A DNA stretch of 64,000 nucleotides from an uncultured Bacilli bacterium. GTDB taxonomy: Bacteria; Bacillota_I; Bacilli_A; RF39; UBA660. The DNA lies in NCBI GenBank assembly GCA_958413985.1, contig CATYVZ010000008.1, positions 5,842 through 69,841 of the forward strand. The letters run 5' to 3'. Below the pieces are notes generated by a model. The model ran no database searches. It saw only the letters and a list, made by a program, of their open reading frames with translations, and was not told where the DNA came from. This document shows, in pieces, positions 2,085 through 42,055 of the stretch; the first letter of the stretch is position 1; each line of letters begins with the position of its first letter. The position numbers were made by a program, and so were the translations under genes.

Positions 2085-2112
2085 AACTCGAACTTTTATG
2101 GTTCGAGTTTTA
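2085..2112 (+). terminator. rho-independent terminator of tRNA-Leu(CAA)
   Basis: CTCGAAC-ttttatg-GTTCGAG stem-loop followed by TTTT. Confidence 0.6.
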
Positions 2113-2285
2113 AAATACCAAAAAAGAGTCCGTTTTTTATATAACGTTATTAATAATCTTCAAAAAATATATTTGATTTAATTATAGAAGTTCAAAAATG
2201 GAAAGTTAATAAATAATTAAATATAGCAAATTATAAGAAAAATTGTGAGAATTGGTGTATAATAAAAGATAAACAAATTGGAGGT

Positions 2286-2702
2286 ATGCTAATGAATGAA
2301 GATAAAAGATTATATTTACAGTTAATACAAAATATTATTGATAGAATGGCTGATAATTCTTTTAAAGTAAAAGGATGGGCAATTGGAGTTATGTTAGCCA
2401 TATTTTCTTTTGCTAGTAATCAGGGGGATAAGAGATGTATTTTATTTACCGTTGTTCCATTATTTGTATTATGGTTTCTAGATACTTATTATTTGCAATT
2501 AGAAAGAAAGTACAGATTATTCTATAATATAAAAAGAAATTTGAAAAATGATGAAAACTTGTATGATATGAATTACAATAATATTAAAATTGAAATGGAG
2601 GAAACAAACAAAATTTGTTTTATAAGATGTATGTTTTCATTAACAGAAGTTTTATTTTATATAACTTGCATTGCTACAAGTGTAGTAGTTTATTTGATTT
2701 AG
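2286..2702 (+). CDS. small multi-TM protein (138 aa), candidate SLATT-like membrane effector partnered with TIR-like gene
   Basis: N-terminal amphipathic helix, two closely spaced TM helices (AIGVMLAIFSFAS; ILFTVVPLFVLWFL) and a third C-terminal hydrophobic helix. Stop is 10 nt before the next start, with an AGGAGG RBS inside the 3' end. Confidence 0.5.
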   Translation: MLMNEDKRLYLQLIQNIIDRMADNSFKVKGWAIGVMLAIFSFASNQGDKRCILFTVVPLFVLWFLDTYYLQLERKYRLFYNIKRNLKNDENLYDMNYNNIKIEMEETNKICFIRCMFSLTEVLFYITCIATSVVVYLI

Positions 2703-2712
2703 GAGGCAATAT

Positions 2713-3306
2713 ATGTCAAGGAAAGTATTTATTTCATTTAGATATAGTGATGGAAACAAGTATAAGGAACTTTTAACTGAAATATTTGATAAGAATAATG
2801 ATGTTATTAATTGTTCTGAAAATATAGATAGATCGATGATGTCGGAAGCTACAATAAAAAAATACTTATATGATAAGTTGAAAAATACCAGTGTTACTAT
2901 TGTTCTTTTAACACCGGAAGCGATTAATTATAGAAAAGATTGGTATGGAAATATTAATGATTGGATTTATGATGAAGTTAGATATTCATTAGAAGATCGT
3001 GAAAATAATAGATGTAATGGTTTAATCGCAGTATATACTCCTGAAGTTAAAGATATATTAGTAAGTAAATCTTCTAGTGGCTCAACTATTATAAATGACT
3101 TTAATAATTTAGTTAGAAAAAATATGTTTAATATTTTCTCGGCATATAAAAATAATAAAGAAGAAGGTTATTATAATGCTAATTTGGATCACTATTGTTC
3201 ATTAGTATCTTGGGATGATTTTATTGAAAATTTCAATATGTATATTGAAATTGCCGAGAAAAAGAGAGAAGAAAAATACAAGTATGATGTACATAAAAAA
3301 ATGTAA
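2713..3306 (+). CDS. TIR-like domain protein (DUF1863/ThsB-like fold)
   Basis: N-terminus KVFISFRYSDG matches the canonical TIR/DUF1863 start (VFISYSxxD). Downstream SVTIVLLTPEAINYRKDWYGNINDWIYDEVRYSLE matches the TIR alphaC/betaD region with conserved W and E. Confidence 0.55.
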   Translation: MSRKVFISFRYSDGNKYKELLTEIFDKNNDVINCSENIDRSMMSEATIKKYLYDKLKNTSVTIVLLTPEAINYRKDWYGNINDWIYDEVRYSLEDRENNRCNGLIAVYTPEVKDILVSKSSSGSTIINDFNNLVRKNMFNIFSAYKNNKEEGYYNANLDHYCSLVSWDDFIENFNMYIEIAEKKREEKYKYDVHKKM

Positions 3307-3612
3307 TAAGTAGATTTTAATTATGGTAAATTGCATATCCAAAAATGCCCAGAAACTGTCCAAAAGTGATATAAAAAGTGTTCTAATTCCTTGGACACTA
3401 TGATAAGATTGGTACTAAGTGAGAAGCAAAAATTGGCTTTTAGAGCTAATTTGAAAGCTGATTACTTATGATCACAGATTGCGGAACTTGAACTTTTTAT
3501 TTGAGATTAAAATATAAAAGATATCAGATTGATTTTTCTGATATCTTTTGTCATTTTAGAAACACACTTGCATATTGACATAATCAATAAGCGTGTGCAA
3601 TAGAAAAATTCT

Positions 3613-4152
3613 TTATTTTATTGTTGCTAATATTTCCTCTATTTTATTAAACTCATTTGTGTAAAAGGTAATTCCAAAATCATATGTTGTATAATTATCA
3701 TAATTTCCCAATTCATTTTTTTGATACCTATAAAAAGTTAAAAAAATTTTGATATTTTCAGGAGATAATGCATCAGATTGTTTGTCCTCTTTTTTACTTA
3801 ATTTTGAAACCAGTTTTCGTACTATTTTTTTTGCTTCTTCAATATTTTCCTCTCTTGTATAAATTTCTCTTTTTGTTTCAATTCGATCTATTAATATAGT
3901 AGCTGAACTAGATAAATATTGTGCTAATAGTGAATCATCAATATAAATACTATCCTCTGTTATTCCTTCAAGGCAATCTTGAACAAAATCTTTATAATCA
4001 TTAGTTTCAACAACTTTATTTTCTTCAATGTTTTCATTTTCATTCTGATTATTTACAGAAGATTTATATTCTTCTTTAGTACTATTATCACTACAACCAG
4101 TAATTAAAAATAATGCAAACATTATTATTAATATTGTACTTGACTTTTTCAT
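3613..4152 (-). CDS. lipoprotein (179 aa)
   Basis: Signal peptide with lipobox LITGC (MKKSSTILIIMFALFLITGCSD). Asn/Glu-rich mature part. Hairpin AGATATCAG..CTGATATCT downstream acts as terminator. Confidence 0.5.
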   Translation of the reverse strand: MKKSSTILIIMFALFLITGCSDNSTKEEYKSSVNNQNENENIEENKVVETNDYKDFVQDCLEGITEDSIYIDDSLLAQYLSSSATILIDRIETKREIYTREENIEEAKKIVRKLVSKLSKKEDKQSDALSPENIKIFLTFYRYQKNELGNYDNYTTYDFGITFYTNEFNKIEEILATIK

Positions 4153-4322: not shown

Positions 4323-5054
4323 ATGAGCGAGCAAAAACAAGTTATTTATATATTTATGGATGATTCTGGTAAAATGTCACATGCCGATAAATGTTGTTCA
4401 TATGGTGGTGTATATTTTAAAAATCGTTCTGATAGGGATAATTTTAAACGACATTATATGGATATAATAAATAGTAATAAATGTAGGTTTTGTGATTATG
4501 ATAGTGATTCTTGTTCTAAAAATTGTCCAGAAATAAAATCAAATAACACTAACACAAAATTTAGAAGAAGAATTGTTAATTTAATTAGAAATAGTGAATA
4601 TGCTAACTCATTTGCTACTACTATTTATAACAGGGATATTCCACTAGAAGTTTTAAATGTAAAACATTCTCGTGGAAGAAGAACTGATTATTATCAAAAA
4701 AGAATAATAAAAGAAATTGTAAAAAAACTTATTATTGATAAAGTTATTGACCCTAATAAACATCTAACCCTAATTATTAGAATAGATGAAAGTCCACAAG
4801 CAACTAATGGAAAATACAATTTGGAAGAAAGTATAATTGAAGAATTATTATATGGAATTACAAATTATGATTATGGTTGTACTTTTCCTCCAATCTTGTT
4901 TGGGGGATTAAAAGTAGATTTAAAATATGTTGATTCTAAAATTACTCCACTAGTTCAAGCATCTGATTTTTTTGTTGGGTATGTTAACTCTACATTGTTG
5001 TGGAAACCTAAAAGAGAAATGCTAGATTTTGTAGATGTTCAATTGTTTTTTTAA
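4323..5054 (+). CDS. DUF3800-like protein (243 aa)
   Basis: N-terminal IYIFMDDSG resembles the DUF3800 signature (YIDESG). Cys-rich CxxC pairs are present. Assigned by memory of the family only. Confidence 0.35.
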   Translation: MSEQKQVIYIFMDDSGKMSHADKCCSYGGVYFKNRSDRDNFKRHYMDIINSNKCRFCDYDSDSCSKNCPEIKSNNTNTKFRRRIVNLIRNSEYANSFATTIYNRDIPLEVLNVKHSRGRRTDYYQKRIIKEIVKKLIIDKVIDPNKHLTLIIRIDESPQATNGKYNLEESIIEELLYGITNYDYGCTFPPILFGGLKVDLKYVDSKITPLVQASDFFVGYVNSTLLWKPKREMLDFVDVQLFF

Positions 5055-5508
5055 CATTAACAAATTATATAAGAAAAAAGAACTAGCTATGCTAGTTCTT
5101 TCCAATTAAGGCGACGCACCACAAGTACGCTTAAACTTTCGTTCGCAACTTAATTGTACACCAGTCGAGGTAAATCCCTCCGGTAATACAATACTATCAC
5201 AATTGAATTGAAATGTCAAATAGTATTGCATTAATATTATATGTATAAAATTAAAAATAATGTAAGTTAAAACATCTATACTTTAAGAGTATTTATAAAA
5301 TTATAAAAATATGTTATACTATAACTAGTTAATGATTATTACTTACTATTTATTTTGCCTAAAAAGTTGTTGTACTTCTTCCTTTAGGGCACCAGATTGA
5401 TTGTTACTCGAACTTTGTAAAAGTTCGAGTTTTTAAGTATAATATAAAGGAAAAAGAAAAGTTATAGTGTATAATATTATTAGGAGGCACTAAAAATTAT
5501 GGATAATA

Positions 5509-6069
5509 AATTAGCCCTTTTTGAAGAAAAAGAAATTAGAAAAACTTGGGAAGAAAATAAATGGTATTTTAGCATAGTAGATGTGGTATATGCACTTACA
5601 GATTCCAAAGATCCAAAGCAATATATAAAAAAAGTTGAAATTTAGAGATTATGAGTTGCAAAATAACTGGGGTACAATTTGTACCCTGCTTGGAATGCCA
5701 ACTAAAGATGGTAAAATGAGAAAAATACAAATGAGTGATACAGAAGGAATATTAAGAATTATTCAATCAATTCCATCTCCTAAAGCAGAACCTTTTAAAA
5801 GATGGCTTGCTAGAGTTGGTAGTGAAAGAATAGAAGAAATTAATAATCCTGAACTTGCTCTTACGAATTTAGGTGAAGCAACCGCAGTAGAATTTCACAA
5901 AAAGAATAATAGTCAAGGATTAGAAGAATTAAAAAAAGATATGAACAAGGCAGGTAAAGTATTAAATAAAGCCAAACAAGAAATTGAAAATGAATTAGAA
6001 AGACCTGTTGTCACCTCGGAAAATTATATTGAATTAACGCAAAAAGAAGAATTATTAGATATAAAATAA
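5509..6069 (+). pseudogene. Bro-N / DinD-like (phage antirepressor family) gene disrupted by frameshift at an A7 run
   Basis: The frame starting at 5509 encodes MDNKLALFEEKEIRKTWEENKWYFSIVDVVYALTDSKDPKQYIKKVEI-stop, a Bro-N N-terminus. The family C-terminus (ILRIIQSIPSPKAEPFKRWLARVGSERIEE) continues in another frame as ORF 5635..6069. The break coincides with AAAAAAA at 5628-5634. Confidence 0.5.
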
Positions 6070-6295
6070 GAAAAACATGGTATACTTGTTATAGAAATTA
6101 ACCTTAATAAAGATTTCCAGACGTCGCCTAAGACACCAGATTGATTGTTACTCGAACTTTTAGAGTTTAAGTAATAAATGCTAACTAGAAATAGTTAATT
6201 TCAGACTGTTGACAAATAGGTAAAAATAATACCTATTTGTCTTTTATTATGAAATTTTATAGATAAATACAATAATACTTAATATATTTTATATA

Positions 6296-6523
6296 TTAAG
6301 CATAATGATGTAATGAGAATTTTTTCAGATTCATACACGCAAAAAGAAGGGTTAACTCTCGGTGGACCCTTTCTTTTGTTCTAAAGTATGTATTCCTTAA
6401 TCCATACTTCATTTTCCCATCTGCAAAAACTCGCTCTATATGTTGAGGTCTTTGCCCATATATTTCTTTTACATCTAACTGATGCCTATAATCATTTACC
6501 ATTTCTTTATATCCTTCCCACAC
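6296..6523 (-). mobile_element. IS1182/IS5-type transposase C-terminal remnant (75 aa)
   Basis: ERVFADGKMKYGLRNTYFRTKERVHRELTLLFACMNLKKF matches the conserved C-terminal tail of IS1182-family DDE transposases. No upstream catalytic domain, so truncated. Inverted repeat GATTTAGGTCA..TGACCTAAATC lies at 6580-6615. Confidence 0.5.
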
Positions 6524-6816: not shown

Positions 6817-7125
6817 CTAACATTTTTTACTATAAAGAGTTTCGATCATTTTGTTAATTGTGTCTTTATCCGATTCACACAAAGAATAATATTTAGAAAT
6901 AATATTATTTTCATCAACTAAACCTTCAACGCTTGTTCCTAATGCCTCTGCAATTTTAAAAGCAACGGGAAGTGATGGTGTTCTTGTGCTAGTTTCATAA
7001 TAAGTAATACTTTGTTGTGAAACTCCTACCATAATACTAAGTTTAACTTGTGTTATGTTTTTCTTTTCTCTTAGTTTTTGCATACTAGTAAAGTCTAATT
7101 TATCTTTCTTTGACATAAATACCAC
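6817..7125 (-). CDS. XRE-family helix-turn-helix transcriptional regulator
   Basis: ITQVKLSIMVGVSQQSITYYETSTRTPSLPVAFKIAEALGTSVEGL is a Cro/CI-type HTH. 102 aa. Confidence 0.7.
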   Translation of the reverse strand: MVFMSKKDKLDFTSMQKLREKKNITQVKLSIMVGVSQQSITYYETSTRTPSLPVAFKIAEALGTSVEGLVDENNIISKYYSLCESDKDTINKMIETLYSKKC

Positions 7126-7195: not shown

Positions 7196-8362
7196 TTGAA
7201 GTTTTATGATATAATTATTTTTGAAAGTATGGTATTTGTGAAAAAAAAGATTATGTTAATTGGAATAGGAATAGGTTTAATTTTTGTTTCAAGTATATTA
7301 TTAAGTTTGATTATGACTGATTCTGATTTAGCAATCCGAATTTCAATGGGGATAGGTATTGCATATTTTATACTATTAACAATAATTTCATATATTAAAA
7401 ATATTTCTAAATATATTAAAACAGGAGAAATACCTAATACATCAAGTTTGGCAATATGGTCTATTGCTTTATTAGGTCATGCTAGTGGAAAAGGATTTGG
7501 AACTTCGTTAACATTATTGCGAGGTGCACAAGCTGCAACAAATGAATTTTCTAATACTAGCAAAAAATTAGGAATGGTAGTTTATACTTTAATAAATATA
7601 GCATTGTGGAGTTTTCTTTGCTTTATAAGTTACTTCTTTGTATTTGGTGAAACCAATTCATCTATTGTTACAGATATTTTACTTTACATTATAACTATAA
7701 GTTTATTTTTAGCTATTATCATAATACTTATAGTTGGAATAAAAGTTATTTCATATAAGAAAGAATCAGCAAAAGAAAGTTTATCAAGACATATGGGAGA
7801 ATTGCAAGAGAAAAATCCTTTACAATTTAGTTTTAAATCATTTATTCTTCACTATGGTATTGTTTATGTTATATTAGCAGTTTTAGGAATAATAGCAACT
7901 ATTTTTATGGTATGGTGTGTTAGTCAAGGTTTTAATGTACAAGAATTTATGACAGTAATTTTTGGAGAAACTTTAGGGTTAATTTTTGTATTCATTTGTG
8001 GCTTATTATTCTTATATGTTTTAGTAGGAATACCTGTTGTTCTGTTAGTTGTAATTCAAAATTTGCAACTTCAAACTATTATTTTTAATCCATTAGAAAT
8101 TAAGATGATTACTAAGAATGGCTATGATGGGTATGGAACTTACGAAAAAGTTGAAAAGAACTATTTTGTAAATGAGATAGAATCTTATTCAATAACTAAT
8201 AGATGGTTTATAATAAATGGGCAAATAGAATCTGTTATTCACAAAACTGTAAATAACTCAACAAAAGAAAAAAATAAGACACTAAATAAATTAAAGATTC
8301 CTCGCGTTTTCAACAACGAAAATATTTTCATAGAATATTTAGAAAAATCTTTGAAAAAATAG
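7196..8362 (+). CDS. polytopic membrane protein (388 aa), unknown function
   Basis: Eight or more hydrophobic helices. Divergent from the XRE regulator gene. Confidence 0.45.
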   Translation: MKFYDIIIFESMVFVKKKIMLIGIGIGLIFVSSILLSLIMTDSDLAIRISMGIGIAYFILLTIISYIKNISKYIKTGEIPNTSSLAIWSIALLGHASGKGFGTSLTLLRGAQAATNEFSNTSKKLGMVVYTLINIALWSFLCFISYFFVFGETNSSIVTDILLYIITISLFLAIIIILIVGIKVISYKKESAKESLSRHMGELQEKNPLQFSFKSFILHYGIVYVILAVLGIIATIFMVWCVSQGFNVQEFMTVIFGETLGLIFVFICGLLFLYVLVGIPVVLLVVIQNLQLQTIIFNPLEIKMITKNGYDGYGTYEKVEKNYFVNEIESYSITNRWFIINGQIESVIHKTVNNSTKEKNKTLNKLKIPRVFNNENIFIEYLEKSLKK

Positions 8363-41711: not shown

Positions 41712-42055
41712 GGGGTCGTCTAGTTTCGACGGAAACACTATTTTTAAAGGGCAAGTCGTCAAGGTATGACGTTATAATCCAAATTAAAAATAACTGGAAA
41801 CAGAAATCAATTAGCTTTCGCTTAATAATTTAGAAGGCTGCTTCTTTATTTCTTTACTTACGAGAAATAAAAGAGGCTCGATTAGTGAGTTATATCGATA
41901 GTTTTTTTTCTAGGATTATCGATGAATTTAATAGAAATTACTGAGTGAAATTTTGATAGTTTATTATCACTTAGGACAACAACAAATTATCTAAACTTGT
42001 AGAACTTTAATCTTGGTATTTTCGGACAGGGGTGCGATTCCCCTCGACTCCACCA
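41712..42055 (+). ncRNA. ssrA: tmRNA (ssrA)
   Basis: 5' GGGGTCG pairs with 3' CGACTCCACCA. tRNA-like T-arm GGACAGGGGTGCGATTCCCCTC. Internal reading frame ending GCT TTC GCT TAA TAA (tag ending ...LAFA-stop-stop). Length 344 nt. Confidence 0.8.

Follow-up and report, generated by a model that had tools for sequence, protein, structure and literature searches.

Two adjoining genes downstream of a tRNA-Leu gene

The DNA analysed here (the window) is a 64,000-nucleotide stretch of contig CATYVZ010000008.1 (positions 5,842 to 69,841, forward strand) from an uncultured Bacilli bacterium of the RF39 lineage, and our subject is a pair of adjoining genes on its + strand. We propose that this pair is very probably a type V Thoeris anti-phage system, in which thsF, the gene for the putative effector, is followed by thsB, the gene for a TIR protein that would act as sensor and signal synthase. 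Both open reading frames (ORFs), ORF1 at 2286-2702 (138 aa as first called) and ORF2 at 2713-3306 (197 aa), were confirmed on the same strand, and they have the peptides and the 10-nt spacing reported in a preliminary description made from the sequence alone. The reading frame of ORF1 stands as given there, whereas its length probably does not. The start codon is most likely the ATG at 2292 (136 aa) rather than the ATG at 2286 (138 aa), because a GGAGG at 2279-2283 sits 8 nt from the former and only 2 nt from the latter, and because the homologs and public gene calls are all 134-136 aa long. We place thsF at 2292-2702, as a predicted three-helix membrane effector identified by BLASTP, a family profile, PADLOC and AlphaFold2 (AF2), and thsB at 2713-3306, as a predicted ThsB-type TIR identified by Pfam, PADLOC, AF2 and Foldseek, with a putative catalytic glutamate, E88, encoded at 2974-2976.

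The Shine-Dalgarno sequence of thsB (AGGAGG, 2701-2706, + strand) shares bases with the TAG stop codon of thsF and lies 6 nt ahead of the thsB ATG, an overlap that is compatible with translational coupling of the two genes but is not proof of it. Upstream of thsF, a possible -10 hexamer (TATAAT, 2258-2263, + strand) with TG immediately 5' to it can be read from the sequence. This is weak evidence for a promoter: no convincing -35 element lies by the hexamer, and a consensus promoter scan did not flag it.

ORF1 and ORF2 are not chance ORFs, because relatives of both are numerous: an exhaustive profile search with the ORF1 family (~135 aa) returned 4,957 cluster representatives at E<=1e-3 (3,214 at E<=1e-10), and 593 relatives of ORF2, almost all annotated as PF08937, were present in a large protein collection. 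Both genes are intact and full length in comparison to their homologs and keep all of the nearly invariant family residues, E88 included. In addition, an identical thsF-thsB pair was found at the scpAB/tRNA-Leu site of the source species in many metagenome samples.

ORF1 is a predicted ThsF-type membrane protein

Thoeris has been expanded to eleven validated types (Yirmiya et al., Dec 2025 preprint, bioRxiv 10.64898/2025.12.03.692087). Type V consists of ThsB and ThsF, a protein labelled 'DUF2270' with three membrane helices, for which the preprint gives a model of a homo-heptameric channel whose pockets between protomers are basic (AlphaFold3 interface score, ipTM, 0.78). We recovered the validated Bacillus thuringiensis DAR 81934 system itself: the ThsB of Table S1 of the preprint corresponds to P0311 (locus L029) at 100% identity. 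On the P0311 contigs, the 141-aa gene that lies 14 nt downstream of thsB bears the next Integrated Microbial Genomes (IMG) identifier (+1) and is the ThsF of Table S2. Our literature search for ThsF found no mention of the protein beyond this preprint.

ORF1 gave nothing significant against Pfam and NCBIfam. In PADLOC-DB, however, all four PDC-M50A models matched ORF1, with a full-length match at E=1.4e-38, and the validated B. thuringiensis ThsF matches PDC-M50A too (E=1.8e-48). BLASTP aligned ORF1 with this ThsF (L029:4773-5198) across 126 aa, of which 35% are identical (E=3e-26), and a 115-member profile of the ORF1 family matched it over its full length (E=4.4e-52). On the strength of this homology to a validated ThsF and of the common PADLOC model, ORF1 is a predicted ThsF.

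The ORF1 family has a near-invariant signature in helix 1 (R18-x3-N22-S23-F24-x2-K27-x-W29) and another after the second transmembrane (TM) helix (F60-W61-x-L63-D64-x3-L68-x2-E71), the latter motif reading LDTYYLQLERKYR in close relatives of ORF1. R18 and K27, two conserved basic residues, are present in ORF1, and R72, K73 and R75 are invariant among the close family.

The AF2 model of ORF1, built from a 115-sequence alignment, has high confidence scores (pLDDT 94.9, pTM 0.85). It contains a long N-terminal helix that runs into TM1 (residues 3-44), a tight turn, TM2 continued by a cytoplasmic helix (47-82), and a C-terminal half in which a loop with short helices is followed by a third hydrophobic helix (117-135). 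We place the membrane spans in a TM1/TM2 hairpin (~28-44 and 47-66) and a third helix (~116-135). In the hydropathy profile TM2 and TM3 are clear, and the hydrophobic core of TM1 (W29-A41) is shorter. The modelled protein thus has three membrane helices, not the two that the preliminary description had assigned to it. A Foldseek search with the model found no similar solved structure (best E=3).

We considered DUF2270 (PF10028) as the true family of ORF1 and rejected it, the similarity being below threshold (14.3 bits, E=0.03, cut-off 25). The validated B. thuringiensis ThsF gives no PF10028 match either (E<=1), so in practice the DUF2270 label does not define membership. Among 115 diverse members of the ORF1 family, the sub-threshold Pfam matches were to DUF3278 (48), DUF2270 (21), Ac76 (16) and 8xMP (14), and those to DUF3278, 8xMP and Ac76 are typical of short hydrophobic proteins. 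The suggestion that ORF1 is a SLATT/DUF4231 protein did not hold: this family was absent from the Pfam matches of ORF1 (E<=1), of 20 close members (E<=10) and of the 115 diverse members (E<=1).

ORF2 is a predicted ThsB-type TIR protein

The second protein had been described as a TIR of the ThsB/DUF1863 type, and our searches bear this out. ORF2 scored 34.7 bits against Pfam PF08937 (ThsB_TIR; cut-off 21.2, E=2.5e-8) and matched the PADLOC ThsB model PDLC00438 over its whole length (E=9.7e-77). Its match to PDC-M50B was far weaker (E=4.2e-7), as was that to a CAP12/Pycsar effector TIR model (E=0.026). By sequence, 9vyl, a 'putative cyclic ADP-D-ribose synthase TIR1', is the nearest of the solved structures, with a match over the full length at E=4e-11. 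The AF2 model of ORF2 (pLDDT 90.8) also found 9vyl in Foldseek, as BdThsB1 with NAD (E=6e-10, TM-score 0.77), together with the ThsB-Tad3 complex 9b7d and EcThsB 8wcf, and then other TIR domains including SARM1. A literature search for 'BdThsB1' by name found no mention.

We looked at the position of the predicted catalytic glutamate in 38 ORF2 homologs and found that D83-W84-x-x-D87-E88 is invariant and that Y86 is present in 90% or more of them. E88 aligns with the glutamate in the 'WVRYE' motif of Bacillus cereus MSX-D12 ThsB (BcThsB) and with the equivalent glutamate of type III, V, VI and IX TIRs. We take the BcThsB residue, E85, to be catalytic. From its predicted fold and this putative catalytic residue, we conclude that ORF2 is a ThsB-type TIR.

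Close relatives of ORF2 occur in more than one kind of Thoeris operon. ORF2 is 54% identical (E=8e-65) to IMG 2595466115, listed as 'DUF2270 - Type V' in Table S1 of Yirmiya et al., and a 56%-identical relative (P0079) lies in a canonical type I operon with a SIR2-STALD ThsA and two ThsBs. Because P0079 sits in a SIR2-STALD operon, the ORF2 clade is used with the class of effector that responds to 3' cyclic ADP-ribose (3'cADPR). ORF2 belongs with TIR cluster 2742576382 of the preprint, to which the type IX TIR of Paenibacillus macerans (2639430606) also belongs.

The gene pair has the architecture of type V Thoeris

The features of type V that can be tested in a sequence are all found at this locus, namely ThsF homology, three predicted TM helices, an adjoining thsB and a glutamate at the catalytic position. 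The earlier view of the pair as a two-gene defence module of a TIR and a small membrane effector is borne out by the ThsF and ThsB homology. Like the type V system found in B. thuringiensis, the pair is an operon of a TIR gene and a gene for a ~140-aa protein with three TM helices that matches PDC-M50A, and the TIR has a glutamate at the catalytic position. The two differ in gene order, ThsB coming first in B. thuringiensis and the effector first here, and in the TIR clade, the B. thuringiensis ThsB being a 252-aa protein of model PDLC00430 and ORF2 a 197-aa protein of model PDLC00438. The putative ThsF described here diverges from that of B. thuringiensis at 65% of residues. Either order of the two genes is common across the ThsF family, as are many different TIR clades.

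The adjoining genes ORF1 and ORF2 match both parts of PADLOC candidate PDC-M50 (PDC-M50A and PDC-M50B), so computational work had put the pair forward earlier as a multi-gene candidate for defence. PDC-M50 denotes a 'phage defence candidate' from a guilt-by-embedding prediction (Payne et al., bioRxiv 10.1101/2024.01.29.577857), and a literature search for 'PDC-M50' by name found no mention. Because the validated ThsF and ORF1 match the same PDC-M50A model, we conclude that PDC-M50 and type V Thoeris are one system. A system of this kind is already published and is not new, although type V itself is a very recent addition.

Other Thoeris types share parts of this architecture. Type I has the same ThsB TIR family and the same principle of a TIR-made signal that activates a separate effector, but the effector at this locus is a small membrane protein, from which killing by membrane damage and not by NAD+ depletion is expected. 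The preliminary description, which had allowed for NAD depletion, noted that no SIR2/SLOG ThsA partner is present, and a tblastn search of the whole window for SIR2-STALD ThsA returned nothing better than E=0.18. Its statement that the pair is not canonical Thoeris is correct for type I, which is absent here, but does not apply overall, as this architecture is now classed as type V. In type II, a ThsB TIR likewise works with a membrane-disrupting effector (the 2TM-Macro protein ThsC; signal His-ADP-ribose), but ORF1 is all helical, has no Macro match and, at 136 aa, is too short to contain a Macro domain. Type VII (ThsB with the SLATT protein ThsH) and the SLATT effectors of cyclic oligonucleotide-based antiphage signalling systems (CBASS) also use a nucleotide or TIR signal to activate a small oligomerising membrane effector; ORF1 differs from these in having no SLATT homology.

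Proposed mechanism and alternative explanations

In B. thuringiensis DAR 81934, infection leads the type V system to make 3'cADPR, cells that carry the system are harmed by this molecule, and the Tad1 sponge abolishes defence (Yirmiya et al., bioRxiv 10.64898/2025.12.03.692087). Both of the validated type V ThsBs produced 3'cADPR. By analogy, we propose that the ThsB encoded here would sense phage infection and that its TIR site (E88) would convert NAD+ to a cyclic ADP-ribose isomer, most likely 3'cADPR. This signal would bind ThsF, a predicted ring-shaped homo-oligomer with positively charged pockets between protomers, and ThsF would then disrupt the membrane, aborting the infection. In this scheme the trigger, the identity of the signal, the oligomerisation of ThsF and killing through the membrane are inferred from the published type V system, and our own data show the homology, the fold, the residue at the catalytic position, the operon layout and the recurrent adjacency of thsF and TIR genes in mobile contexts. 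A search of the ORF1 family also found a 378-aa SLOG::ThsF fusion (P0308) with a SLOG LD_cluster2 domain at residues 10-198 (E=1.7e-15) and a ThsF module at 246-374. The predicted domains of this fusion independently tie the ThsF membrane module to the sensing of a nucleotide signal, and their arrangement implies that some ThsF-type effectors would use a dedicated nucleotide-binding domain.

Several observations weigh against assigning the pair to type V. The validation of this type comes from a preprint, which itself warns that the effector labels of Table S1 are noisy. ORF1 and the validated ThsF are only 35% identical, and neither of them reaches the Pfam threshold for DUF2270, the label that the preprint uses for type V effectors. 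The validated type V ThsBs lie in TIR clusters other than 2742576382, and the preprint reports no 3'cADPR toxicity for the second validated system, from Bacillus sp. 1NLA3E, so that variants may use different signals. At the locus itself, the promoter scan gave no convincing promoter for thsF-thsB.

The least certain part of this scheme is which signal is made: one validated type V variant ignored 3'cADPR, and the TIR cluster of ORF2 holds a type IX TIR. A variant nested within the type V assignment is that the ORF2 clade makes another signal (2'cADPR, canonical cADPR or a new ADP-ribose derivative) to which this ThsF is tuned. Consistent with such a variant, the TIR clusters of the preprint are common to Thoeris types with differing signals, and type IX effectors are not activated by 3'cADPR; the P. 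macerans system itself showed no defence when tested (Yirmiya et al.). Against it stand the production of 3'cADPR by both validated type V ThsBs and the occurrence of the 56%-identical TIR in a SIR2-STALD operon of type I, which is the classical architecture that responds to 3'cADPR. If the pair is indeed type V, we consider a different signal somewhat unlikely. A different division of labour, with the TIR as an NAD+-depleting toxin and the membrane protein as its sensor, anchor or regulator, would fit a role that is common among bacterial TIRs and that Yirmiya et al. concede for unverified configurations, and the weak CAP12/Pycsar match of ORF2 points the same way. We judge it quite improbable. 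The ThsB family, to which ORF2 belongs, consists of proteins that send their signal to a separate effector, and close relatives of ORF2 are wired to SIR2-STALD proteins; moreover, 3'cADPR alone is toxic in the validated homologous pair, so that killing lies at a step downstream of the TIR, and in the SLOG::ThsF fusion the TM module is the output of a nucleotide sensor.

The pair could also be seen as a SLATT-type pore with two TM helices and a TIR, that is, as type VII Thoeris, in which SLATT-TIR pairs have been validated with canonical cADPR as the signal (Yirmiya et al.). The likeness of a small helical membrane protein beside a ThsB-type TIR is superficial: the Pfam scans of ORF1 and of its 20 close and 115 diverse relatives described above contain no SLATT/DUF4231 match, and ORF1 has strong full-length homology to ThsF and three predicted TM helices rather than two. 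At the sequence level, the type VII assignment is effectively refuted, and we regard it as scarcely credible. That the pair is an inactive remnant, or cargo without a defence function in a decaying island, would agree with the decayed genes nearby (a split Bro-N ORF and a 75-aa transposase fragment) and with the lack of an integrase. It is very improbable given that both ORFs are intact, that conserved residues including E88 are kept, and that the identical pair recurs in the metagenome samples.

ThsF-TIR pairs recur in mobile and defence contexts

To describe the distribution of the family, we used 32 species-representative loci from Bacillota, Bacteroidota, Chloroflexota, Melainabacteria and two archaea. 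A TIR gene adjoins thsF in at least 23 of these loci; 19 of the adjoining TIRs are small ThsBs, and the side of thsF on which they lie varies with the TIR clade. In one prophage, a pair sits at the junction of a 2,075-aa tail-fibre gene with the endolysin/holin genes, beside a serine recombinase; another pair is part of an element with the order helix-turn-helix (HTH) gene, pair, MerR gene and Y-family polymerase/YolD genes. Pairs were also present at an integrase-flanked and an IS66-flanked site, with partner proteins of 149 aa and 138 aa that are homologous to ORF1. On the Clostridium botulinum plasmid p6CSt, a homolog of the B. thuringiensis ThsB is followed by a 135-aa ThsF (E=2e-35). ThsF homologs are encoded on 140 plasmids, 81 of them conjugative. 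A tblastn search of a phage collection found them on only three 14-kb Vibrio phage-like elements, and a pattern scan of IMG/VR found no ThsF relatives. The ORF2 TIR match is significant and pairs of this kind occur in mobile or defence contexts, not in core ones, so neither of the outcomes that the preliminary description had named as refuting a defence role was found.

Some loci depart from the arrangement seen here. In four Porphyromonas loci (L052 1919-5414, L056 65-3063, L057 62-3602 and L059 32-3288), a large gene for a protein of 850-1,030 aa lies upstream of the ThsF-like gene, which overlaps it or starts 2-5 nt after it. The large proteins have an LRR-Roc-COR-TIR architecture in the three that were scanned (L057 was left out), and we read this arrangement, from its predicted domains, as a ROCO/NLR-like sensor that is wired through a C-terminal TIR to a type V effector. 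In Blautia schinkii (L035 4980-6687) and a Lachnospiraceae bacterium (L040 4977-6730), the ThsF-like gene is followed by one for a ~430-aa protein with an N-terminal DUF4062 domain (E~1e-10) and no recognised TIR. This DUF4062 protein may supply the ThsF-like effector with its signal in place of a TIR. In Methanimicrococcus (L034) and Ca. Bathycorpusculum (L041), small TIR genes lie on both sides of the ThsF-like gene, so the predicted type V architecture reaches archaea.

The closest relative in the genome collection, with a ThsF that is 76% identical, was found in a metagenome-assembled genome labelled Muribaculaceae (L031 5001-6023), where the GC content of the cassette is 25% and that of the locus 33%. 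Its presence on a contig binned as Bacteroidota reflects either horizontal transfer of the pair or mis-binning. At locus L020 (2055-5072), a type I operon (SIR2-STALD ThsA and two ThsBs) is followed by a gene for a conserved 148-aa soluble protein without a Pfam match, within an integrase-bearing element.

The pair lies in a cassette bounded by att-like repeats

The thsF-thsB pair lies 213 nt downstream of a tRNA-Leu(caa) gene (1988-2073, + strand; ARAGORN and repeat search), whose 3' end and trailer would serve as the insertion site, and scpA/scpB lie upstream. The preliminary description had placed the pair in a tRNA island. A cargo hotspot beside a tRNA gene is indeed present, but it is a variable region next to a single tRNA-Leu gene, with the remaining tRNA genes ~10 kb away.

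A motif that resembles an attachment (att) site, CAGATTG-N3-8-ACTYGAACTT, occurs in exactly four copies in the window, all on the + strand, compared to 0 expected (100 shuffles). All four were located by repeat search and alignment. Copy 1 (2072-2095), which reads CAGATTG-N-ACTCGAACTT, overlaps the final 2 nt of the tRNA as well as the trailer hairpin and marks the left boundary of the cassette. Copy 2 (3475-3495), which is degenerate, lies 169 nt past the ORF2 stop and marks the right boundary; copies 3 and 4 are at 5393-5415 and 6137-6159. The cassette between copies 1 and 2 (2096-3474, ~1.38 kb) has a GC content of 24.5% compared to 29% for the window. A terminator-like hairpin (3509-3556, inverted repeat I6) lies between the convergent thsB and lipoprotein genes; a terminator scan flagged it on the - strand, and its + strand tail reads GTCATTTT.

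In L064 and L066, which are distant relatives, the motif natively follows tRNA-Leu, so that copies 2-4 resemble att-type duplications from successive insertions. The cassette itself looks like cargo that was acquired horizontally at this tRNA-Leu site. The 28-nt 3' end of the tRNA has no second copy in the window; it is the shorter trailer motif alone that repeats. A metagenome scan that combined the 3' end of tRNA-Leu with the att core found no isogenic empty site; it gave six distant loci sharing the tRNA and trailer only. No integrase gene was found in the island.

Downstream of copy 2, the cassette is followed by a module with lipoprotein and DUF3800 genes and then by a split Bro-N/PDC-S13-like gene, after which the island continues with a transposase fragment, an HTH gene and a gene for a 388-aa multi-TM protein, up to the core gene pflB. 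The DUF3800 protein (4323-5054, + strand, 243 aa; PF12686, E=4e-7) belongs to the second att-bounded module and has no PADLOC match, and the 179-aa lipoprotein gene (3613-4152, - strand) lies opposite to it. Two overlapping ORFs of 48 and 144 aa (5499-5645 and 5635-6069, + strand) resemble a frameshifted or truncated Bro-N gene, and the 144-aa ORF matches the PADLOC single-gene candidate PDC-S13 (E=7.5e-44) over profile positions 50-125 of 286 only. The transposase fragment (6296-6523, - strand) is a 75-aa piece of a DDE transposase. An XRE-type HTH regulator (6817-7125, - strand) is divergent from the 388-aa protein with many TM helices (7196-8362, + strand), which has a weak DUF6768 match, and these two genes may be another cargo module. 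Elsewhere in the window, ARAGORN identified a transfer-messenger RNA gene (41712-42055, + strand; tag peptide GNRNQLAFA) that is unrelated to the pair.

Significance of the locus

Our findings leave the current understanding of TIR signalling unchanged. Their value lies partly in annotation, as small ThsF-like proteins that match nothing in Pfam or NCBIfam and are encoded beside TIR genes can now be confidently called as type V Thoeris. The locus also extends the known range of type V to a very low-GC gut-type bacterium and to a different ThsB clade. What remains of interest is the ORF2 TIR clade with its signal and the layout of an att-bracketed mini-cassette at tRNA-Leu.

With its repeated att-like trailers, the tRNA-Leu site offers a natural example of how defence cargo gathers at a hotspot. 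A broader joint reading is that miniature defence or cargo cassettes lacking an integrase were mobilised in trans and serially accreted at this one tRNA att site, and that the ORF2 clade, which is wired into type I, V and IX systems, makes a signal new to type V; we consider this combination unlikely. If it is true, the trailer-bounded 1.38-kb cassette and the modules at copies 3 and 4 would represent an integron-like swapping of defence genes.

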